NCBI GenBank assembly: GCA_000442015.1
Contig: KE561184.1
Span: 49,804-69,803 of the forward strand
From: Rozella allomycis CSF55
Lineage: Eukaryota
DNA: 20,000 bases
Direction: 5' to 3'
Shown here: positions 616-19,760 of the stretch, piece after piece
How positions within the stretch are numbered: position 1 is the stretch's first letter
Layout: every line of letters begins with the position of its first letter
Notes under the pieces: generated by a model
Database searches by the model: none
Told to the model about the DNA's origin: nothing
Seen by the model: only the letters and a program-made list of their open reading frames with translations
Program-made: the position numbers and the translations under genes

Positions 616-687
616 TTACATTTTATACAAACAACTTTAAGCAGTATCTAACTTTAGGTAATTACCATTACATTTTGCCTAAACTTT

Positions 688-1840: not shown

Positions 1841-3304
1841 TTAAGCGTTGGTTGAGCATTTAAAAATATTGAAACCATTCAACGCGGTACTAATTATCAC
1901 ATTGGGGAGTTGTCGGTGCCAGTGAAGCTCTTTAATATTATCTTGCCCTTGATGAATGAAGAGAAGCTGTGGAGGAATATCTTTCATAGAGTCATGAGCT
2001 ACCTCAATATCTTCTTCAAGGGAAAAGTCCCAAAGAGTCAATTGATCGTCGGCACCTGAAACGGCTAAAACTGTTTCATCAGTTGGATGCCATTCGATAG
2101 AGGTAATTGGACTCTTGTGCCATGAGAATGATGCAACGGGGTCGAAAGCATTCATAGAAAAATGTCTTAGGTCAAAAATCGAAAATTTTCCGTCGTCAAA
2201 TCCTGAAGCCAAAAGATAATCTTCTTTTGAATTCCATGAAATAACATTAACGTCAACAGAAGAAACCGGTGCAGTTAAGATGCATGCGTTTTTCGATCTA
2301 ACATCCCAAAGTTTTATTGTTCCATCAGTGGAACAAGACGCAAAGACATCATTTTCTTTTGGTGACCACTGTAAATCTTCAATAGACCCACCATGCCCTT
2401 TGAATTGATCCGGATTTGCTACTTGATCCGGTGAAACATTTGTCATACATATTACACCGTTGACATCTCCTGAGAGTAATCTTAGTTTATAATTAACATA
2501 TTGCAATACCTTCCAGGCACCCTTACACTCCAATCTAATGCAAATCCTTCTCCTTTGTGCCCTTTTATAACTCCAAAATTTGATGGTGTTTTATTCATAT
2601 TATCCTTGGTTGGATTTTCAAGGGATTCCATAGCCTCAGCAATATTGAATAATCTAACTTTTCCATCATCTGTCCAAGCAGAAACAATTCTGTGCTCATT
2701 CGTTGACTGAGGCATTGCCTATTCTAATTGTATGTCGTTATTACTCTAACACGATTTACGCCAGCATTTAATGATGCAGTTCTCACAGATAATATTGGCT
2801 CACCATTATTTTCTTCTTCATCATCATCTGATTCTTCGTCGCTGTCATCATCGTATTTTGTCTTGCACAGGTTTGATAACTTGGCGACATATAACTTATT
2901 GTCACATGCGTTCGAAGCCTGAGAGCCTGCTACAATAGTTGCACTCATGGGAAACTATTGAAATGAAAAATTAAAACTTACTAAAACTCTATTTTCTCCG
3001 AGTGAGTCACTGACTATATCAAAACTAAGGCAAGGCCATTCTGGTGTTAGCTCATGGTACATTTCGTATGCTGAAGAGTCAAAAGTTAATTCTTCTCCTT
3101 CTTCTAATTTATCTCCAGGTAAATAAACCTTTTATTTTTATACATATGTAATACTTTTGTCTCTTCATCGGCATTTTCAATATCCATGTTGGCCTCATGT
3201 ACTTCGTGATCAGATTCAACTATTTCTTCTATTTCACTGTCAGAAAATTCCTCTAAATCCATCTCATCAAAAGAGGGTGTATTATCGTCCTCTCTTCTCT
3301 TCAT
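1841..3304 (-). CDS. RRB1: Ribosome assembly WD40 protein RRB1/GRWD1 (multi-exon)
   Basis: Acidic N-terminus, then FDSSAYEMYH...WPCLSFD, GVNRVR, EGFALDW, SIEDLQWSP and IPPQLLFIHQGQ..IKELHWH motifs across consecutive exons. Confidence 0.93.
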
Positions 3305-3361
3305 AAATATTTTATGGTGGCTTGGCAGAAAACGATTTTATAATAAAAACAACGCAATGAG

Positions 3362-3852
3362 TCATTTATTATAATGTGTACATATTTCCTTGATTTTTGA
3401 ATCGTGTTTGACAATTAAATCTTTCAATTCAGAAATCTCTGCTTGCAATCTATTCATTTGACTTTCAAGAGTTTCAATTGATTCATCGACAAACTCTTTC
3501 CGATCTCGAACTTTACCCTTATTTCTTGTAGATTCTAAAACCACTACTAATCCAGCAACTGAAAATATTATAAACTCTCCAATAAAATTGGCTATTCAAC
3601 TCTTTACAAAAAATGTATTTTACCGCCAACATTTATTGCCCTTTCTTCATCAAGTGGCCTAATTCTTTCAGGTGCCTTATCATGCAATTTGCTTCTCATC
3701 CTTGCCTCCATTTGATGATAGGATTCGGCTACTTGAATGCATGCACTGCGGAATGCAGGTCTTCGTTTTGCTTCTGATTTCATGAAGCTAGCTATAGGTT
3801 TCGAAATAGTTCTTAGGAATAAATATCCCAACTTTACCAAAGGAATCGACAT
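3362..3852 (-). CDS. OPA3: OPA3-like protein (2 exons)
   Basis: KLGYLFLRTISKPIA and IRPLDEERAI..G motifs, followed by ANFIGE..IFSVAG after a short intron and a C-terminal coiled coil. Confidence 0.9.
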
Positions 3853-4111
3853 TAAAGATGCTAACGCAGAAAGCTAAACAAATAGAAATATTTAACTTTA
3901 CTTTGGAATATGTTCTTTACATGTTCTAATGACAAAAAATGATTACAATATTCACGACAGGACCGGACTCAAGTTCAAAAAAATTACAAAACGTGAACTG
4001 ATTTTGCAGTAAAAATAAATAATTTGATGGGAATGGACTAAATACTAACATAGTCTTTAAGGAAGAATTTGTTCAAAGTTTCGAAGCTTACCCTTGTTTG
4101 TAGATTATTTA

Positions 4112-5287
4112 ATGGATAAAAGAAAAGCTGAAATGCAAGTATCCATTGATGTTAAAAAGCCAAAAGTGGCCGAAACCTCTATAGTGAAAACCTTTAACTC
4201 GAAAGGCAAGCAGATACAAAGTATTCAAGTGAAACGAACGTCAGGCCTGAAATCGCCTATAATGTTATTAACGGGACACGAGTCTGATATTTTAACAACC
4301 AGATTTAGCCCATGTGGGAATTATTTAGCTTCTGGATCATTTGATAAAACAATATGTAAGCATTTTATCATTTCCAGAATAGTTTTGTGGAATGTTTATG
4401 GGGAATGTACAAATTTTAACGTTATGAGAGGACAAAACGGTGCTATTTTAGAATTAGACTGGTCTCCAAATTCAGAGTAATGCATCTGTCTAGACATTAA
4501 CAGGCGTATCTTTACGGCGTGTTCTGACAAGACTGTTGGTATTTACGACGTTATTGTGGGAAAAAATATCCGAAAGCTAAAAGGACATCAGAATATTATA
4601 AATTCTGTGAATTGTTTAAGACGTGAACCTCACTTGATTGTGTCTGGAAGCGACGACAAAATGATTAACGTAAGGGTTGTTGTTTCATATTTTCAGATAT
4701 GGGATCAAAGGCAAAAAGAACCGGTTAGTACTTTTACGCAAAGATTTCAAATCACTAGTGTTTCTTTTGGCCAAGTCGGAGATCTTGTGTTTGCGGGGTC
4801 TTTGGATAACGATATTACGGCTTGGGATATTCGTAATCAAAACATTTCATACAAGTTGAACGGTCATATTGATACAATTACTGGCCTAAGACTCAGCCCT
4901 GATGGTATGAATATTCTTTCCGCTTCCATGGATCATTCAGTTCGATTGTGGGATGTGAAGCCCTACGCCTCTGGAAATAGATGCCTAAAAATATTCGAAG
5001 GCGCACCTCATGGACACGAAAAAAATCTTATTAGACCTTCATGGTCTCATGATGCCCAAAGAGTTGCATGTGGAAGTGCCGATAGAACGGTTCTTGTTTG
5101 GGACGTTCCATCACGCAAAATTTTGTACAAACTTCCAGGTCATAAAGGATGCGTAAATGAAGTTGATTTTCATCCAGAAGAACCAATAAGTAACTCATCG
5201 TGTTTATACTAACTAGTCGCGTCATGTAGCGCAGATCGGCAAATATTCTTGGGAGAGATAGAACCATCTTATTCAGAATCGTACTAA
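4112..5287 (+). CDS. SNRNP40: U5 snRNP 40 kDa WD40 protein (SNRNP40/Spf38), multi-exon
   Basis: RTSGLKSPIMLLTGH, LWNVYGEC.N, GAPHGHEKNL, ILYKLPGHKGCVNEVDFHP and IFLGEI motifs. Confidence 0.93.
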
Positions 5288-5530
5288 TAAATTCGAAATA
5301 AATCTAACAACATTCCATTTTTATTGCCAATAAAAGCTTGTTTACTATTTAATATTTATCAATGTTAGGTTTAAAAAGTCAGGAAGAGGACCCTACGACC
5401 AAAAAAATCGACAATGTTTTAAAATATTTGCAGTGCATAGAAGAAAAGGACAATAACTCACTTTCGACTCTACAAAGAATGGGGCCCGACATATTGCATG
5501 AGAGTCAAATAGGTACAATAACTCTATACG

Positions 5531-5900
5531 ATGACCTGATTCTCCGACAAATGTCTCTTGAAGGCTTCATGAATATAGAATAAGATTCGTTTTCCACTAA
5601 ATTTCATGAAATCTTCCTTGTCGAAAAGAAACAAGTAAAGTGCCTGTGAATTTGGAATTACACGGAAAAATGTTAATTTTGAAAAAAAATTCCCAATCGA
5701 AAAACCTACGGAACATTGTTTCTTCTTTAACTTGGACATTTTGAACCCATTCACTAAACCTTGCGAATCTTTTATTAAATATTAGTTAAATATTTAAAAT
5801 ACTCCAGTCTCTATGATAAATTTTTCATAATAACTGAGAGTAATAAGAATCGGTCCCGCTCTCCCAAGTTCCTTCCCTGATTTTTCTTGAAGTTGATAAA
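5531..5900 (-). mobile_element. Degenerate L1/Tx1-type LINE 3' remnant, copy 2
   Basis: Nucleotide blocks shared with 1375-1740 (atgacctgatt, cttcatgaatatag, tttcttctttaactt, cactaaaccttgcgaatc, taactgagagtaata); frameshifted. Confidence 0.75.
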
Positions 5901-5917
5901 ACTACAAACATATTTAA

Positions 5918-5999
5918 TTTAAATGTTTATGCCAGTCTTCTCAAAATCATGGATGCAATCCTTTTTGCTAAAGTTAACATTAATGTGAGCCTGTGGTAT
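5918..5999 (-). repeat. 3' terminal fragment of the CRE-like retroelement also seen at 19761-20000
   Basis: ttatgccagtcttctcaaaatcatggatgcaatcctttttgctaa is near-identical to 19761-19805; encodes LAKRIASMILRRLA*. Confidence 0.7.
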
Positions 6000-6220
6000 G
6001 AATTATCATATATGCATTCTTTCTGCTATTTAAAGAACACAACACATCACATACTTAGAAGGTCGAAGAGGTTTCTGAGTCCTCCATCCATTCCGACGAT
6101 GTAAAGAGCCGTCATTTTCATCACACCCATTAACAGAAAAGGTAGCCCGCAGCGGAAATGGCCGACCGAATGGAACAAACAGTCCAACAAACATCGCAAA
6201 ACCTGTAAAGGCAAGTGATC

Positions 6221-6390
6221 ATTGGGAGAGCGGGACCAATTCTTATTACTTTCAGTTATTATGGAGAAATTATCATGGAGCGTATCCGCAAGGTTTAGTA
6301 ATGTTTCTGCAATGTGTTCAAAATGCAAGTTAAAGAAGAAACAGTGTTCCATAGGTTTTTAGATTGAAAATTGCAAATCTTTAAAAAGAA
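6221..6390 (+). mobile_element. Degenerate L1/Tx1-type LINE remnant, copy 3 (inverted relative to copy 2)
   Basis: ttgggagagcgggacc...cagttattatgg...cgcaaggtttagt...gttaaagaagaaacagtgttccatagg corresponds to the reverse complement of copies 1 and 2. Confidence 0.75.
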
Positions 6391-6412
6391 GAGACGATAA
6401 TAGTAAGTATGN

Positions 6413-7183
6413 AAGAAAAAAAAGAAGTTTGGGAATTATTGGATTGGCACTGATAGGTCGACATCACTTCAAGAATACCTCAGGGGTCATGAACAATCTA
6501 CGCTGTTGGAGATCTTTACGCTTTTGTATGATGGAGATGGCCTTGATATTTGTCTGGATAACACACAAGTTGATTATCAAGACGAATGGAAGACGCCAGA
6601 GATACTGACATTTCTCGTAATGACTGGTTATCTCACCTACCGCCATAATGAAGTCATTATTCCAAACACTGAAGTTAGAAATCATTGGAATAAGCAAATA
6701 CGCCCTTTGTTTAATGCCGCTGTTAACGAAATGTATGGAAATCAAGTTAGAGCTTTATTTGCTCCTCAAGGTGAATTCAATCATCAAGACTGTCTAGATT
6801 TTATGCAAGACATTTTACTCAATGCCTCTAGTCAAGATTTGGCAAGACTTCAGTATCCAGAAGCACCTTATCATTGTTTTTACTTTGGGATATTTCTTGG
6901 TTGTCTGCATGATGGATCTTTGGTTAAGGTTACTTCGAACAAGGAGGCAGCTCTTGGGCGCTACGATATTAGAATCCAATTTGTGAAATTTAGAAGGGCT
7001 TTTATCTTTGAGTTCAAGGTTGATCGATCAGTCAACAACACTGAACAAGATCCAAACCTGGCTCTCCAGCAAATTCATAACAGACAGTATTACCACGATC
7101 TTCATGGTTACTCTGTACATTTGATTGGCGTTGCGTTCCACAAGAAGCATGTTGTTTTATCACACGAATTGATTAATGTGTAA
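6413..7183 (+). CDS. Bacterial-type AAA-ATPase-like protein with C-terminal PD-(D/E)XK nuclease (PDDEXK_9-like); 5' partial at an assembly gap
   Basis: Frame is open from the N at 6412: FGNYWIGT, LVMTGYLT, IPNTEVR, EAPYH, SNKEAALGRYDI, IFEFK, ALQQIHNRQY, IGVAF; no introns. Confidence 0.85.
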   Translation, partial: KKKKKFGNYWIGTDRSTSLQEYLRGHEQSTLLEIFTLLYDGDGLDICLDNTQVDYQDEWKTPEILTFLVMTGYLTYRHNEVIIPNTEVRNHWNKQIRPLFNAAVNEMYGNQVRALFAPQGEFNHQDCLDFMQDILLNASSQDLARLQYPEAPYHCFYFGIFLGCLHDGSLVKVTSNKEAALGRYDIRIQFVKFRRAFIFEFKVDRSVNNTEQDPNLALQQIHNRQYYHDLHGYSVHLIGVAFHKKHVVLSHELINV

Positions 7184-7282
7184 TAAAAGTGTTTGTTAGC
7201 TAATATAATATCTTTATTTCCAAGTATCAATGCTACTATTTTTAGTGACTCAGATGTCTTGTTGTTAGCAACGCCCACATAT

Positions 7283-7657
7283 ATGCCAGAAAACGGAACT
7301 TTATACGAAGAAATTGGAGGCGCTGAAACGGTATCAGCCGTTGTAGATTACTTTTATTCCTTACTCATCAAAGACAAAAGAGTGAAAAAGTACTTTGAAT
7401 CAATCGATTTGGATCGTTTGAAGATCATGCAGAAATCATTCATTTCCAGTGTCTGCGGAGGTCCTGCATACAACGGCCAGAGTATGCGTTCAGCTCACAA
7501 GAGATTATTGGATTTGGAAAACAAACATTTCGACGCCATCTTGGAAAACTTGGAAACCGCCATGAAGAAGGCAGCCAAAAAGACAATCTCTGAAGAGAAT
7601 AGAAAGAAGATCCTCGCTGTTGCAGAAACAACCAGAAAAGATGTGCTCGGAAAATAA
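7283..7657 (+). CDS. Group 1 truncated (2/2) haemoglobin, GlbN-like
   Basis: TLYEEIGG, VVDYFY, D.RV..YF, Q..F....GGP.YNG..MR.AH and HFDA motifs; likely ATG at 7283. Confidence 0.93.
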   Translation: MPENGTLYEEIGGAETVSAVVDYFYSLLIKDKRVKKYFESIDLDRLKIMQKSFISSVCGGPAYNGQSMRSAHKRLLDLENKHFDAILENLETAMKKAAKKTISEENRKKILAVAETTRKDVLGK

Positions 7658-7711
7658 ATTTCTTTACACTTTCCAATTTTATTTACATTGTAAGATTCTA
7701 TAAAAAGGTAA

Positions 7712-8083
7712 TTATGCATCGTCTTGAAATACTCTATCTTCAGCGAGAAATATGGACTTGTTTGCATTATCTAGATAGCCTAATGGTCCAATTTCACACT
7801 CTGCGCAGATCAAAAATCGAAAATCATTTCCAAAGGAATCCATTTGAGTAGGTTTAGTAACTCCAATGTTATCAAACGTGTATATATTTGACAAAAACCA
7901 TCCACGTGAAGATATTTTCTCAGATTTGGATGTCATTTCCGGTAACTTGATCTACTCGAAAACTGAATTTCATGTTACCGTTAAATTTGTTTTTAATTCT
8001 GCTGAATTCTTTTTAAGTATAAGAGTACGACATTTTTCATTTACACATCGTATATTATTCGGATTTAAATTCGTTTCTGTCAT
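7712..8083 (-). CDS. Mss4/RABIF guanine nucleotide exchange factor (exons 8083-7979, 7951-7712)
   Basis: N...IRC...C in exon 1; 27-nt GT-AG intron 7952-7978; FDNIGVT and FLICAECEIGPLG in exon 2. Confidence 0.9.
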
Positions 8084-9046
8084 TTCGAAAATTTACGACG
8101 CATTTAAAGAAATNCAAATGATATATTGGGGGTTTACTGATTACCATGGACTTTACGATATTCGATTCTTGATATCTTGGATCTGGTCAGTGGTCTTCTT
8201 CAAATATCCACTTCTAAATCCTAATTCAATATTCATAGAATGAAAGTTTACCATTAAAGAATTAAGAAAATGTAAATTGAAATCGAAGAATGTCAGGCAA
8301 AAGACATTTACGAGAAGATATTTGATACCACGTGTAGCCAAAGACTAAAGAGAGTAGTCAAACTGATTCCGTATTTTTCATTGGTTTTGTTCCAAGCTAC
8401 AAGCATAAAAGAGTGATGCAATGATGGAATGGGCGATTGAAGGGTATCAATCAATTATATCCAATGAATGATGTGTGAAGTATACTCTAATGGTCTTTGA
8501 CTTTGATCTAGTCTTGCCGCTGACTTGTTTCACAAAAGAAATTATTCCAATTGTTGCGCCAAGTGATCAAAATTTGGACGAGCTATACTCTTTGTTAACT
8601 AGTGACATAAAGGTTATATTTACCGATAGAACTTTGCAATCTTAACAGTTCATCGCAAGCCAAGTGAGGTATCAAATGGATGGCAAGTCTCACTGAGATA
8701 GCCTCTTTGGATCACAAATGGTATTAAACATAGCGGTGAACTCTTTGATTGCAAGGTGTATGGACACAAGGAACGAAAACTTAATTTGATCATCCAAAAG
8801 AATAGATTTTCCGTGCGACATAAAGGAATATTCAATTTCGAATAAGTGATATTCAAAACAATTAACCAAGTATGACGTGAGCTACTGTCCGCGAACTAGG
8901 TGGTATAATAAACGAGACAAGAATTCATAGTTTTTTAGGTATGCAGGCCGATTTTCATTGTAATACAAACGGATTGTTGAATTCTTTAAAGCCGTAGCGA
9001 GCATATCATAGATGCAAATTTTTCAATAAATCCACTGTGCTATTTA

Positions 9047-11230
9047 TTAGTCTAAGAAAAGCATATAATCCACCAAAGACTTTCCATAACAAGCAGCCAG
9101 ATGTTCGGATGTGAGTATGATGCAATTCTTCGGAACTTGGGAACCGACAAAGTTTGCACCAATATCTCCTTTCAACGCGACGACCAAGTACGATTGACGG
9201 TCTGAAAATTGAGACCCTAGAATTACAAAGTAAACGATTTTAATACCTCCATATTGATCAAGAGTGAGAGTCATTTGGCGGGCGACTGAAGTGATGAGCT
9301 CTTTAGTAGTGGTATCGTGTGTGATGCACCTCGTTGCAATGTTCCAGGTCACTTTGCCAGGGCCTTGCGTGTCACCTGCTTCGGGATAACAAGCGAGATT
9401 AAATCCATCATTGGAGCTTTCAAAGTGATAGATAACGTTAGGCTGAAATTGATCTTGTTTCATGTCGTTGAATTGCTTTTTGGTACAATAAAATAGGAAG
9501 GTGTCTCCGGGCACAACAAAGTACATCTCATCAACCAATGTGCTTGACAGAAACTTTGGATAAATTGATGTCAATTTCAAATGAGAGCAGCTTTGACTCG
9601 ATGTTTAGATTGATACAACAAGCGAATCAATGTTTTCCACAGGCCATGAGCGATCTTGAACGTAGAACCAAATTCAGTCAACTTATAAAGAGTTTCACCA
9701 ATCCGATGTAATAAGGAACCTTTATATTCAGTAGAAAGCAACCTGGAGGCAAAGATTGCCAACGCAAACGGAGAAATAATAGGAACAAAACTTCTGCTTT
9801 TAATTTCTTCATCGGAAAAAGAATTCAAATACAAAGCCCGCTGAACTGAGTCTTCATATGTGCGATTATGAACAATTTTATCATCCATTGGAACTGTTGT
9901 ACGTAGAAGGGCAGCCCTAACATCCTCGATACACAAATAAGCATAAAAGNACATCCTTGATACACAAATAAGCATAAAAGATTGCATGTTCGGCGGCACC
10001 GGAAAGCAGTTTGTTAAAGAGCATTTCATAATTCCAAACACCAAGCTCGTTCGAGTATTGCTTAAGAATACCAAACAATGCTTCCAGACACCGCGGATGG
10101 CCCCCAACCGTAACAATTAAATGCTTGACGTATGCGAACTTGGTATATTCCCAGAAAAGTCCAAGAGAAGCTTCCACACTCAATCTATTCAAAGGAACAA
10201 AATGGATATGTCGACCAGCTTCTGAGGCGCATTTTGTGATACTGGACACTTCTAATGAGGAAATAATCACATGGTTTCGTGAGCAGCAATCGCGTAAAGA
10301 TTTGCTCATCATTGGTGAAACACATCTCAGGCAATTTGTCACTTGTTCAGCATTTCCTTTTTTTGCGATTTCATCAAATAGAAGAAAAATTGATTCTTTC
10401 TTTGAGTGCTCGCGAATGATGGCTAAACTTGCGTCGATACTGAATTTGCCAACCCGTCTTAATCTACTATAAAATGAATCAGCGGAAAGGCTCTGGGACA
10501 GCTTGGTTTTATCAATGAAATAGCTGTGCAGGATTCGTATTGAAATGGCCTGTTCAGGATCTTCGGAACGCCAGACTTCCGTATTTCCACCGAAAGTAAT
10601 TGGAATATACACAGACTCGTTCATCATCTTTTTCAACTTTGCCACTTCCCCATTTAACTATATTAAATGTATGTACTGGTGTCTTACTATTTCACGCATA
10701 TCAGTAGTCAATTCGCCACCTAACTTTAATTGTGAGCGCACATCCATGTACACTTCCGCCACATCTGCATGGTCCATGATATCGCCCTTTATCTGTCCCG
10801 TATAGTCCATCATCTTTGATTTCCCTCCACCAGAAGGTGCCTGAAGCCCGATATATCGATCAATATCTTTCCGATCGAGCTCACTGTCTCTTAACAGCCA
10901 CCGTCTCAAGATCTCATTGGCAATCCCTCTCATGCAAACATCACGATCGACAACCTCCTCAAATACGTTGTTCGCAAGCTTATCAACAACTGAAAAGTCT
11001 GTCTTGATTTCAGCACTGAATTCGTTCAAAAGTAGCTCAAGTGGCGTCTTTTTTGGGTTAAGTTGGATGTAAATGGCACACCCTGCTGACCCAAGTTTAT
11101 CAATCCAATTGTCTGCGGTGAAAGAAGCGTAATCTTCAAATTCAAACTGGTTCTCTTGAACAAACTTATAAAACTTTTCCTTAAATGTTTGAGTTTCAAT
11201 CCACTGTCCAAATTCTTCTTTTGTAATCAT
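9047..11230 (-). CDS. Crinkler (CRN)-like P-loop NTPase with a short helical header and a possible degenerate C-terminal REase; coding status uncertain
   Basis: Walker A APSGGGKS, YIPITF, Walker B IFLLFDE, GGHPR.LE; in-frame 30-nt intron 10658-10687; N-gap duplication at 9920-9980; frame change near 9580. Confidence 0.6.
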
Positions 11231-11535
11231 CAAGACAGGGGTGTCGAAGGTTTCTTATTTGATGGCTGTGCAAACCTTAAATTTTAAAATGATCTAGCCC
11301 TGTCATAAATTTGTGAAACACTTTACAATTTAGAGTCTGTGACAGCGATTGAAGAACTTTTTGATCATATCCGGTCTTTATCGACAAAAGGGTTTGGCTT
11401 GTGGAGTGACGAAGCCAAAAGGTGCTTTGGTACTGAGGTTACTATTGCCACAGCTGCTAGGTAATAGAAATTAATTAGTAGGACTACTAGGTTCGGTGCC
11501 TAAATATTCTCCAAATTACTGAATTCCCTGTACCC

Positions 11536-12141
11536 ATGCAGAAAAAATGTTTTGGGCCCCTTGTAAGGACGTTTCCTGTGCATATAGTGGAAGAATGTGT
11601 GGTTTTTGTTTGCGGCAATCGAAAATACATCGAAGAATTTATTATAAAGAACACCAAGGGAATAATGCCTAAGAATTTCAACATGAAGCCAAAAGGTAAA
11701 GATAATATTCGCGTATCTGTGGCACACTCAAAAAACCACCATTGTGTCGTGCTAAGCGAACGCTGCTCAGTTGGCATTGATATTTTAAATATTAGAGAGT
11801 CGTATTCTTCATTGTTAGTTCTTTTAAACAATCCCTCTCATGTCTTCAATAATAAAGATTTCATACCTCCTTTGCATTATGGCGATGAAAAAATAAATAG
11901 AGTCGCATTAAACTGGGCATCAAAAGAGGCAGTTGTTAAGTGCATTGGAGAGGGATTGTCAATTCCTCCCAATTTGATAAGAGTTGATTTTATCAACGAA
12001 ATAGGCACTGTCATTAAGTTATTGGGAGTATCAGAATATAAAGCAAGTAAATTTTGGATCCATGGATTTGTATTTGAAGATAATATAGTTATGATAGCTT
12101 TAGATAATGAAAGGGTGAATCCAAGACTAAATATTTATTAA
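11536..12141 (+). CDS. Sfp-type 4'-phosphopantetheinyl transferase (5' end uncertain, may have upstream exons)
   Basis: KP...SVAHS, VGIDI and WASKEAVVKCIGEGL motifs. Confidence 0.8.
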   Translation: MQKKCFGPLVRTFPVHIVEECVVFVCGNRKYIEEFIIKNTKGIMPKNFNMKPKGKDNIRVSVAHSKNHHCVVLSERCSVGIDILNIRESYSSLLVLLNNPSHVFNNKDFIPPLHYGDEKINRVALNWASKEAVVKCIGEGLSIPPNLIRVDFINEIGTVIKLLGVSEYKASKFWIHGFVFEDNIVMIALDNERVNPRLNIY

Positions 12142-12145
12142 GAAT

Positions 12146-13851
<1,706 letters not shown>

Positions 13852-13941
13852 TTGCAAATTGTTGTAATTAAATGTGGCGTTCAGTTGAATAGAGTTATTA
13901 TAAAGAAGTAACGAAAACGTGTGTGCTTTATTTACAATTAT

Positions 13942-15517
13942 TCATTGATCATTCAACATATGTGTCCAATCAAATTCTGGATATGTCTTTTTCAAAATAT
14001 AAATTCTCTTGTCCAAAATCAAGTCGTCTTTAATAACTGCCGCATTATCCCTCCATTGAGTCGCATCCAATCCCAACAACTGACCGACTACACTCTACAA
14101 TAAATATCGCATTAATTTGTTACTTTTCCAAAATCGATGGAAAATGATTCCTCCTTTTCAATTACATGGGCATATCCTGTATCAAGTTTAAAGTCCACAT
14201 AAAAATAAGGAAATTTCTTGGGAACGGATCGTCTCAATCCTTTTTCAAAAGTATCAACGAGTTTCTTGTTCTGTGACCATTCGCTCCCAATTTCGTTTAT
14301 TGCTTTTTTGAAATATCCTTTCACTTGATTAATGCAATCGCCAGGGAGGGGAATAGCATCAATCACAGTATGAGGCAGTTTATTGAATTTGATGCAAGTC
14401 TCCAGGAACACCACAGTGAATCCTCTACTTGCAAGCATTCGAATGATGCATTTTTTAAAATTCTAACATTAGAAATACAATCAATAAATTACTCTAATTT
14501 CATCCCACAAGTCTTCATCACCATGCAACATGGATGGAATGTGTTCAATTGGAACAATTTGAAGTTGCAAAGGATGAAGAGCTCCAGTTTTAGGAATCGA
14601 AATGAAAGATTTCAAAGCAGTCGCTAAAACTAAAGAATTATCGAAAAATGAAGATTCCAGACAGAATGGGCAAGCTTCTATAGTCTTTTGTTCTTTTGAT
14701 AAAACCCTGGCCCTTTCTTCGTTCATATCGATTTTCTTTTCTTTATTCTTTAATTTCTTGTTTCTTGTTTCTTGAATTTCATCAAATGTGTCATCATTGT
14801 TGCGTTTAACTTTTGAAGACATTGAAAGGAAATCTCTGTCCATTTTATGTCTAGACTCTGCCCTTTCCATTTGAAGCATCGTTTGAATATCCATGTCATC
14901 TGGATTCGTAAATGTTTTCTTCTTTTTATATTCATTTATATCTTCCTTTATATTTCTATTGTAATTGTTGTACCTTTAAGATTTGAATTTGATACTCTAT
15001 ACGTTCAACAGCAGCCTTTCTTCTATCTTTCCTAGCTGATTTTAATTCTTCTTCAAGTAATTTAATTTTCTCCCTCTTTTCAAGTATCGCTGGATCTTCA
15101 TCTTTATTCAATTTAAGGTTATCAACTTTCTTTCCTTTTTCTTCGGTAATCTTCTTCCCACTCGGTTTCATTTTTGATACTTCGATCATTTCACGAAGTT
15201 TTAGAAATTCTTCATAGGATCCAAACCGATCTTCAGCAACTTCAAGTAGAGATTTCCCTGTTTCCTGTGCCAATTCAATGGTCCTTTGAATCTTTTTAGC
15301 CTGCCATGATAAACTAGGTTTATTGTCATAATTCTCTGGTCTTTTTTGTACGCTTGGGTTTAGAAAGGGATTCATTTCTCTCACTGTTGGTACAGGCGCT
15401 GGAGGCTTTTCGATTTTCTATGATAAATTGGGAAATATTATTTACCTGTTGGTTGTCATTTCTGTCTTTGAATAGCCCCCCTTTTGGAGGTTCTAACATC
15501 CAACTTTCCCTTTTCAT
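13942..15517 (-). CDS. CWF19L2: CWF19-like protein 2 (CwfJ C-terminal domains), multi-exon
   Basis: RESWM, RE.NP, VAEDRFGS, CPFC, IVPIEH, EDLWDEIR, WSQNKK, FPYFYV, GYAHVIE; ends FDWT...*. Confidence 0.9.
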
Positions 15518-15648
15518 GATAAGCCACTTTAGGCTCAAAGGGGAGGGAAATTCTCGATGAAAGGAAGTGGGTCAAGATATGTAGCGATTTAAAATGATGT
15601 ATCGTTTCTATCAGTCTGCCATGATAAACTAGGTTTATTATCATAATT
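15301..15648. repeat. 33-nt direct repeat (15301-15333 and 15616-15648)
   Basis: ctgccatgataaactaggtttatt(g/a)tcataatt, one mismatch. Confidence 0.9.
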
Positions 15649-15681
15649 ATGTGGTATTTTTTGATTTTGCAATTTTCAGGA

Positions 15682-18600
15682 ATGAATTTGACTTTTTTGA
15701 CGACGACCCCGTGGACTGAAGAAGATGTTGAACTTTTAACTAATACTATAAAATACCTTAGACAGACAGTAATATCTTATTTATTGCTAGAGTAGTATTC
15801 TGAGGTTAGTCTGTACGAAGAACTGGAAAGTCAAAATCTATTTCAAAAGTGTTTTTCAGATTTAATCAAAGATAAATGTATGATTTGAAATGTAAATATT
15901 CTAGTCAATGATATTGTTATTGAAGCGTGCAAAAAGGATGAAATAATTTTGGAGAATTGGAAGAGAAGAGTGAAACAGAAATTATTTTATAATGGTGATG
16001 ATGTGTGGTTGACAATTGACTCGTGTATCGAGTTTATATCAAAGTTAAAATTGTATTATCCAGAAACATTAAATTTTATTTTAAACGATAAAAGAAACAA
16101 AAGAAAGATGATTAATAAATTGGCGTGTTGTTCAATTACTGTAGAGAATATAAATATTTTTCTAGACCTTATCGAAAAGAATGAAGATGATATAATGAAT
16201 GAAGATGACTTTAATGAAACATTTTTGTTTCTTTCCATGGAAATATTTCAGGTATTGGTTGAAAATGGAAAGATAGAACCATTAAAGAAAGTTATCAAAG
16301 TAAATTAAAGAAATAAATTTAAAACAGAAATCCATGTTAAAGAAGAATAGTTTGGAGAATAAAATAGCAAAATCATTATTGAGAAAATTCGTAAATTGCG
16401 AAAAAGAATTTAAAGGATTTGATTGGGATTATTATTTTGTTTTATTGAATGCGATTGAAGAAGAAGAAATTCATTTAATAAAAGTATAGAATTGAAAAGA
16501 ATTAAATGTAGCCAATTTTGAGTGGATTCAAGTCATTTGTTGAATCATTTTGTTGTGAAGAATGGCTTTTGGTTCTTGTAGAGGTTGGACTGTCAATGAC
16601 TCAACTTGAATGCAAAAAAGCTTTCAGTGAAATTTGTTTGAAATCTTTAAAGGGAAAATTAACTTTGGAATTTGTTTGTGGTAATTTGAATTTCTAATGA
16701 AATAAAACAGAAAAATTTGTTCCATTGATGGATTGTGTTGCATTGTTTACATCTAGTGGCCCTTTGGAGACATTTGGTTCTTTTGGTGATTTATTTGTTG
16801 AATTCTTTAAAGAAAACAATTTTGATTTAATTGAGATTTTAAAATTGATTCATTTCAAAACAATTCATCCAATAACAAAATTTTATCTTTTGATTTCATT
16901 AGAAGAAACAAAAAATTCTTTAAATGACGATTGCGTTGAAATTTTAATTCTAATTCTGAAAAATCACAAAAATTCAAACGCTGCTTTAAAAAAGGCAATC
17001 GTTCATCAAATTTGGATGTTTTGCAACAAAAATTTTATTTCTTCAAATTTGGATTTTTGTTTAGAAATTTTAAAAGAATTTAAAGACCAGGGTATTCAAA
17101 TAGATTCCAATTTTGTCAAAAAACTATTAAATTTTGAATTTGATGAATTGAAATCTAAAGTTTCAAATTTTTTAGCAATTGAAGATTCATCTTTACGCTT
17201 TTTAACAAATGAATCAAAAAAGATTTCATTTTTAACTCTATTGAACAACGATCACATCATTTTCCATCAATTGTTTATTAAATTAGAAAATATTTATTCA
17301 AATCCTTATTTCCACAACCAAAAATTCTATTTAAAATATTTACTCGTTATTTTTCACATTAATTTACTAAACAATAATTTCTTTAAAAATTTCCCGCCAA
17401 AAATTAAACCGGAATTTCTAGATTTCATTTTTCTTGATTCAATCAATCATCCTTTCATCTTTGAATTCTTACAAAATATTCACAAATTTGACACTTTATT
17501 CTTTACAAATTATGCAAAAAATAAATTGAATTCTAAACTCGACACGAAATCTTACTATTTGGCTTCTTTTGTTGGTTCATCCAATCCATTCTTCTTTCTA
17601 CAAAACAATGAACAAAATAAAATAATCGTGTCCAATTCTATTAAATATAAAATAATTATTTCTAGCTTTGCTGATTCTTCAAACGAAGCAAAACCTAAAT
17701 TGTTAGAGTGGCTTATATCAAACCCGCCTACAAGCAATGAAGAAACTAAAATTTATTTAAACGCAATTAGTTTATTTTTACCATTTATTTCTGAACCACA
17801 AGTAAACATTTGTACATTTCAAAATAGCTCATCGGATTATCCCAGTCCAGTAAAATAGATAAAGAACAACTCATCGATTTCTTTCTCTCAAAAGATTTCC
17901 TTTCATATTTTTGGTCTTTAAGCGTCGAATTCATTAAAAACAATTGGGAAAAATGGAAATCAGATTCTTCAATTTGTTTAATGATTTCAAAATCTCTTTC
18001 ATTAATTTTAAATTCTCCTAAATTTGATTCTGAATCTCATTTGAATTTTCTTGCCAATCTTGTTCTTTCTTTATCTTCATTTGGTACTTTGCCTGACGTG
18101 TATGAAAAATACAAACTAATTGTGGAATCATATTCTATTCATGTTGATCATTCAAATCAAATTCGCTCAAATGTTATCTCTTGTTTTCTTTCTCTTGATT
18201 CAGCTCCTCTGTTAATTTCGGAATTAATCAAGAATTGCATTCAAACTATTATTCATACTCATAACAGCAAAAGGAGCATTTTTCCAAATTGCCTGGAACA
18301 TAGAATTCTCATTCGATTGTACTCCTTTTTAATAATCTTAATAACTAATGCCTCTTCAAGTGATGCAGTTGACTTGTGTGTCCATTTATTTGATATTCTT
18401 CAGATTGAGTCTGATCCTTCAATGTTCACGTATTTGAATTTTATTTTATTATTTTTATCGAATAAATTTCCTGAAATACATTCTATGTGCTTAAAGTAAC
18501 ATAATTTACACTTTGGGAATAGTGAATTAACTAAACCTCATAAACCATCATTCTGTAATGTTTTGATCATAACTTGCTTCAAAACCTGCAATCCCATCCA

Positions 18601-19648
18601 TTATTCAAAGGTAATTGCTTTCATTAAAGTAAATTAAGCTTGCCAGAATTCTGTTACCCTTGTCAATTTCTTCATCATTTCTTTCACGTTGTTATGTTTG
18701 TTTTATCATCTTGAAAATAAAAGAATTCATAAAAGATGATGATTGTTTGGCTAATTTTATAAGTTACATTGAAAATAACCAGGATTGTCAGAAGGGGTTA
18801 AAAAAGGTGAATAACTTTTTATTGACTACAGATGAATCTATTTTGGAGCTTTACAATCTTAAATTTATTCTTCATGATTTGCCTAAAATCAACGGGGTCG
18901 TTGATGAACATGAAATCTATTCACTCTCTTGCATCAATGAGCTGTCTGTCAATTCCAAAATACCTTTAAAAGGAATCAAAGTTGTTGACATTGAAACAAG
19001 AAAGAATATTGACAGTCCAAAAGTTGAGTTGGAAATATTTCAACAAAAAATTCAGCCTTGGGAAAATCAATTCAAACTTGAAGAGTTGGATTCATTGACA
19101 AGAGGAAAGGTAATTAATATTTTAACATTCAATCAATAGAACTCGAAAACTGATATCATTCTAATAGCCTCATTACTAGATAAGCCTGCAAATCTAGGCG
19201 GTCTCTGTAGAACATGTGAAGTATTCAACATTAAAGAATTATGCGTCAACAGCGAAACGATTAAAAATGATTCCATCTTCAAAGCCCTAAGCATGTTTTC
19301 AGAAAACTGGCAAGACATCTGCCAAGTCACCAGATCTGATCTTAAAACTTTCATTCTCTCAAAAAAAGATGCTGGCTATACTTGCGTTGGATTAGAGCAA
19401 ACTTCAGTGTCTACCCCAATACAAGATTATGTTTTTCCCAAAAAAGTTTTGGTTCTACTGGGTAATCAGCTTTGTGATGGATTATAGGAAATGAAAAGGA
19501 TGGGATCCCAGCAGAGTATCTATCGTTGTTAGATGCTTACTTGGAAATACCGCAATTTGGAGTTACTCGTTCATTAAATGTTCATGTTAGTGCATCTATA
19601 CTTTTATGGGAAATCAAGAAACAAACTCTAATTAATAAATCTATTTAG
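15682..19648 (+). CDS. TRM3: tRNA Gm18 2'-O-methyltransferase TRM3/TARBP1 (long helical N-terminus plus SpoU domain), multi-exon; start approximate
   Basis: FQQKIQPW, ASLLDKPANLGGLCRTCEVF, VGLEQT, LLGNEK.GIP, EIPQFGVTRSLNVHVSASILLWE. Confidence 0.9.
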
Positions 19649-19760
19649 TTATTTGAATGTATAATGCTAATTAGTCATACTTACAGCCATTCTATACATC
19701 TTTTTAATAAGTTAAAAAAATTTAATCTAAAATTAATCAAACTAATCTTATTTAAAGTAT

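Follow-up and report, generated by a model that had tools for sequence, protein, structure and literature searches.

A predicted snoRNA host gene in Rozella allomycis in which two introns may abut without an intervening exon

Does a snoRNA host gene of Rozella allomycis CSF55 join two of its introns directly, with no exon left between them? The question is raised by a short stretch of the window, by which we mean the whole 20,000-nucleotide piece of DNA analysed here (contig KE561184.1, positions 49,804 to 69,803 of the forward strand; G+C content 34%). At positions 648–663 of this window CTAAC (648–652), TTTAG (653–657) and GTAATT (658–663) are contiguous, and the letters stand exactly where the initial annotation had placed them. 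What resembles the acceptor of a first intron thus adjoins what resembles the donor of a second (AG/GT, 656–659, + strand), and the annotation had read the junction as a zero-length exon between an snR78 and an snR77 intron that are excised stepwise. We found that the computed sequence evidence favours the abutment of the two introns and the absence of an exon, whereas their stepwise excision is only inferred.

The junction lies in a region (430–1330, + strand) that is probably a non-coding host of the fungal 'cluster I' kind and would yield nothing but box C/D snoRNAs, freed as its introns are spliced out. On the + strand no ORF of at least 80 aa was present between 1 and 1338, and the longest ATG ORF comprised 51 aa before and 46 aa after removal of the predicted introns. 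Rfam matches and guide stretches in 430–1330 gave the + strand order snR78, snR77, snR75, snR74 and snR73, while the Rfam search of the cluster region did not find snR76 and snR72. In the proposed gene model the 3′ part of the first exon (430–517) ends in AAG, an internal exon of 34 nt (803–836) is framed by an acceptor ending at 802 and by GTAAGA, the donor that starts at 837, and the terminal exon (1239 to a provisional end at 1330) contains AATAAA at 1260–1265. Upstream, in 190–520, no further snoRNA or tRNA was detected (nothing better than E ~3). A scan for bacterial-type promoters and terminators, which is irrelevant to a eukaryotic locus, returned counts equal to those of shuffled sequences.

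Some features of the surrounding DNA were recorded alongside. Directly downstream of the host gene, an ORF on the − strand (1339–1689) matched zf-RVT, a zinc-binding domain of reverse transcriptases (E 1.9e-6), and an ORF further along the + strand (6407–7183) matched the PD-(D/E)XK nuclease domain PDDEXK_9 (E 1.8e-10); both are probably remnants of mobile elements. A short duplication with two copies of CTTTTATGCTTATTTGTGTATC (9925–9952) contains an N at about position 9940, which probably marks an assembly join.

The identity of the five snoRNAs was examined with Rfam, the gathering score of which was passed by SNORD35 only. This snR73/SNORD35 match (1120–1203, +) reached 38.4 bits against a gathering score of 36 and is located inside the last predicted intron. 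The snR74/SNORD27-like RNA (1012–1074, +) matched SNORD27 with an E-value of 1.6e-6, its 46.1 bits staying below the gathering score of 52, and the snR75-like RNA (864–967, +), inside the third predicted intron, matched snR75 with an E-value of 0.015 and plant SNOR75 with one of 0.0012 in a 136-base search. The snR78-like box C/D RNA (545–614, +; box C TGATGA at 550–555, box D CTGA at 609–612) gave 28.2 bits (E 0.1), under its gathering score of 48, and two conserved stretches of snR78, TGATGACCAT and ACTAGAGT, were aligned in this match. For the snR77-like box C/D RNA (688–762, +; box C at 693–698, box D CTGA at 755–758) the Rfam matches were weak only, namely Afu_300 with 17.8 bits and sR15 with 18.8 bits. 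Its guide GAATTACCG (702–710) has a near-identical counterpart, followed by a D′ box, in the consensus of Afu_300, an A. fumigatus family. We take this guide to be complementary to the 18S site that is modified by S. cerevisiae snR77, and we infer that the RNA at 688–762 corresponds to snR77. The names snR78 and snR77, which had been proposed from the letters alone, are backed by conserved guide stretches and by Rfam matches that are weak.

To score the splice sites, donor and acceptor matrices were derived from 24 hand-picked AT-rich GT-AG mini-introns of 23–30 nt, all of them candidates from a search of the window's coding genes for introns that restore the reading frame. The training set is small and subjective, and its introns are about five times shorter than the 140-nt snoRNA introns; the matrix scores are rough because only 24 hand-picked introns of the same window underlie them. 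Among the 33 GT sites in 430–1330 the top four were 518 (7.34), 837 (7.28), 658 (6.55) and 1092 (6.41), and each of them is located 29–34 nt ahead of a box C. GTAATT, the hexamer at 658, opens three of the 24 training introns, and a donor score equal to or above that of 658 occurred at 81 of the 39,916 positions on both strands of the whole window (0.2%). Weak GT sites were found at 982 (3.43) and 1239 (0.49). The acceptors of the host gene scored 4.9–5.5, which is within the training range of 4.67–9.53 and at its low end, and a close upstream [CT]T[AG]A[CT] motif accompanied those at 657 (CTAAC), 802 (CTAAT) and 981 (CTAAC).

With these sites, and with the introns abutting at 657/658, the GT-AG introns of the + strand model would be 140, 145, 145 and 147 nt long. 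Intron 1 (518–657, 140 nt) would extend from the donor GTAAGT over a branch-type CTAAC at 648–652 to the acceptor TTTAG, and intron 2 (658–802, 145 nt) from GTAATT over a branch-type CTAAT at 793–797 to the acceptor GTTAG (4.98). That the second intron closes with AG at 801–802 and the next exon begins at 803 had been proposed before, and the splice-site scoring agrees. Intron 3 (837–981, 145 nt) is predicted to start with GTAAGA and to end in TCTAACTTTAG, as intron 1 does, and the last intron (1092–1238, 147 nt), which carries snR73/SNORD35, has an alternative acceptor at 1219. Four of the five snoRNAs fit a GT-AG intron of their own of 140–147 nt; the exception is snR74, which is followed by the next donor with no acceptor AG in between.

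The predicted snoRNA introns are set apart from those of the coding genes in the window. In these genes (2481–19674, both strands) we found GT-AG mini-introns of 23–30 nt, mostly starting with GTAA or GTAT, the branch motifs of which are degenerate and very near the AG. Compared with these, the predicted snoRNA introns have five times the length and stronger, yeast-like signals. A similar two-class intron pattern has been described in Microsporidia (PMC6349667). No clear stack of abutting mini-introns was found in the coding genes of the window. One group of candidates in a coding gene (14946–14995, − strand) had been considered as such a stack and was rejected, the candidates being alternatives of the same frame class.

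What distinguishes the junction at 657/658? The stretch 613–692 holds GT at 644 and 658 only, with none in 660–692, so the earlier statement that no other GT follows up to the snR77 box C is right; the GT at 644 scores −0.56, and by this measure snR77 has no usable donor ahead of it other than 658. From the donor at 658 to the snR77 box C (ATGATGA, from 692) the distance is 34 nt, as had been noted, compared with 31, 29 and 33 nt in the other introns. AGGT occurs 103 times in the window; three of these sites passed both the acceptor and the donor matrix, and one of the 103, that at 658, also has a branch motif, defined as [CT]T[AG]A[CT] within 18 nt upstream. Since GT follows the AG at three of the four host-gene acceptors (657, 981 and 1238), the AG-GT dinucleotides alone are not special here, but the full GTAATT is.

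The sequence in front of the junction points in the same direction. Acceptor 657 scored 4.9 with CTAAC 5 nt upstream, and the 13-mer TCTAACTTTAGGT at 647–659 has an exact copy at the end of intron 3 (971–983) and a counterpart of 85% identity at the end of the last intron (1228–1240). Because TCTAACTTTAGGT recurs at the ends of other introns, 647–657 reads as the end of an intron and not as an exon. The 3′ modules of the introns look as if they had been duplicated together with the first two exon bases. As a separate observation, a 20-mer is common to 967–986 and 1224–1243. A 13-nt inverted repeat (627–639/771–783, 85% complementary) was also seen; base pairing between its arms could join the 3′ flanks of snR78 and snR77 across the AG/GT, and the repeat may be due to chance. 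The rank of the donor, the uniform intron lengths and the rarity of such a site among the AGGT occurrences make the zero-length exon the best reading: the introns with snR78 (518–657) and snR77 (658–802) probably abut, and the exon between them would accordingly have zero length.

Other readings of the same letters were weighed against this one. The first is that a single 285-nt intron (518–802) contains both snoRNAs, with 657/658 idle or with 518 pairing alternatively with 657 or 802; the two snoRNAs would then be separated by an endonuclease or derive from different transcripts. Such a reading gains from the host gene itself, which already breaks the rule of one snoRNA per intron at snR74, and from Luo et al. 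(PMC3596301), whose data are by their own account also compatible with a single functional donor that is joined to one or another of several acceptors. However, 658 matches the accepted donors both in strength and in distance to box C, a complete and duplicated intron end is present at 647–657, and 285 nt is about ten times the common intron size in the window. We regard the single intron as unlikely, although it is the alternative to which we give the most weight.

A second reading makes use of the CAG at 642–644, the presence of which had been pointed out initially as an alternative acceptor. Intron 1 would end there, intron 2 would again start at 658, and a 13-nt micro-exon (645–657) would place CTAAC-TTTAG in exonic sequence. 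The score of this CAG, 3.2, is not hopeless, and small internal exons are known from such clusters, as parts of the Luo et al. paper describe (PMC3596301). Yet none of the 24 training acceptors scores as low as 3.2 (their minimum is 4.67), no branch motif is found in the 28 nt upstream, the micro-exon would have to match the 3′ end of intron 3 by chance, and intron 1 would shrink to 127 nt, outside the 145–147 nt of the other introns. The micro-exon is on these grounds improbable. That the region is not spliced at all, the snoRNAs being freed by endonuclease cuts and trimming as in the S. cerevisiae snR72-78 polycistron and the splice-like motifs being relics, is very improbable: S. cerevisiae and close relatives do make such clusters from unspliced transcripts (sections of Luo et al., PMC3596301), but the regularity of four top donors at a fixed box C distance, paired with the CTAAC/CTAAT-AG ends, is greater than relics would show, and the flanks, to judge from the sequence, appear too short for the stem-loops used in such cleavage.

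We also considered the one snoRNA that departs from the pattern. snR74 lies in a stretch of 110 nt (982–1091, +) that has an acceptor AG before it (980–981) and the strong donor 1092 after it. No AG that could serve snR74 as an acceptor was found between 1071 and 1096, and since none follows snR74 before donor 1092, the stretch 982–1091 looks like an exon that contains snR74. It is possible that snR74 is exonic, that it shares the intron of a neighbour, or that it resides in an intron with the weak donor GTTTTA (982) and a TG end (1090–1091). Exonic snoRNAs are allowed for in some species in passages of Luo et al. (PMC3596301). Two further + strand sites would be conceivable as zero-length junctions, 981/982 (TAG/GTTTTA) and 1090–1091/1092 (TG/GTAAGT). 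Among the frame-restoring GTA...NN mini-introns, the final dinucleotide was AA in 31, AG in 28 and TG in 12, counts that are inflated by overlapping variants of the same intron and are uninformative on TG ends. Taken to its extreme, the snoRNA introns from 518 to 1238 would form a chain with almost no exon left, the exons at 657/658, 981/982 and 1090–1091/1092 being of zero length and the snR74 intron ending in TG; this is very unlikely. If the chain were true, the locus would offer a natural system for studying relaxed choice of 3′ splice sites and recursive splicing in series.

Returning to the abutting introns 1 and 2, an order of events can be proposed. Intron 1 (518–657) would leave first, whereupon AAG, the end of exon 1, would adjoin the GTAATT at 658. 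The donor at 658 would be improved by this loss, because the matrix prefers an AAG over a TAG context. Intron 2 (658–802) would then be removed and exon 1 spliced to the 34-nt exon 803–836. On paper the reverse order is also possible, in which intron 2 leaves first and acceptor 657 comes to face the exon at 803. The lariats would be debranched and then trimmed by exonucleases down to the snoRNP, one lariat yielding one snoRNA, and a route of this kind would require one snoRNA per intron. Lariat debranching and exonuclease trimming are established for the intronic snoRNAs of yeast and vertebrates. For the Rozella locus the use of the sites is predicted, and the 5′-to-3′ order and the trimming pathway are carried over from published systems.

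How does the proposed junction compare with known systems? Recursive splicing takes place at ratchet points, or zero-nucleotide exons, in long introns of Drosophila and vertebrates, for which Chen et al. cite Georgomanolis 2016. There, as would be the case at 657/658, an AG/GT restores a donor once the first splicing step is complete; ratchet points, however, split very long introns of coding genes, whereas the two halves in Rozella would be complete snoRNA introns of 140–145 nt and would serve snoRNA release. Another parallel is SPNCRNA.445 of S. pombe, the host of snoRNA61, for which Chen et al. (bioRxiv 10.1101/226894) demonstrated an intron with a zero-length exon by spliceosome profiling and RT-PCR. 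The same source reports 5′-P/3′-OH peaks and conservation across Schizosaccharomyces. In both loci a 3′ splice site touches a 5′ splice site in a snoRNA host transcript, which is read as recursive splicing; the S. pombe case has biochemical proof, while the Rozella junction is known from its sequence.

The closest counterpart is the fungal 'cluster I', the snR78-77-76-75-74-73-72 host genes treated in sections of Luo et al. 2013 (PLoS One 8:e58547, PMC3596301). According to these sections the introns of the cluster are juxtaposed without intercalating exons, some internal exons being 'small, even absent'. The authors count no fewer than 61 lost exons and report such loss only in Hemiascomycetes, Euascomycetes and Archiascomycetes. 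The ESTs and RT-PCR results given in the same text fit stepwise removal in the 5′-to-3′ direction, and may also fit a donor that chooses among several acceptors. The Rozella locus resembles this cluster in the order of the snoRNAs, in its predicted non-coding host, in having mostly one snoRNA per intron and in an acceptor that adjoins the next donor, but differs from it in that snR76 and snR72 were not detected and in that the surrounding genome uses introns of 23–30 nt. Mitrovich et al. (2010) reportedly described cluster host genes of the same type in Candida and Yarrowia. Juxtaposed snoRNA introns without exons are thus already published for fungal clusters, and the mechanism considered here is not new.

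Relatives of the locus were sought in metagenomes and in the literature. A search pattern built from both snR74 guides returned 0 loci, and a looser snR74 pattern returned 22, none of which carried the snR77 guide or stood in cluster order; these 22 were dropped as relatives of the cluster, being unrelated eukaryotic genes of the U27 type. In the literature on Cryptomycota snoRNAs and on the short introns of Rozella we found no description of the locus. The cluster is dated to the root of Ascomycota in the sections of Canzler et al. 2018 (PMC5824354) that were available, in which Rozella is unmentioned, while those of Luo et al. (PMC3596301) place it also in Basidiomycota and Rhizopus. Because Rozella keeps the order snR78-77-75-74-73, in contrast to the root-of-Ascomycota date given in those sections (PMC5824354), the cluster is perhaps much older, and cluster I may have originated at the base of Fungi. 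We rank such an origin as likelier than the almost exon-free chain of introns.

The possible novelty of the junction lies in the lineage in which it is found. Since the mechanism has been described before, the gain would be one of breadth and not of principle. If the junction at 657/658 is used, exon-less and serially spliced snoRNA introns would extend beyond Ascomycota to an early-branching lineage, the spliceosome of which handles mostly introns of 23–30 nt, and the exons of the host gene would be dispensable spacers.
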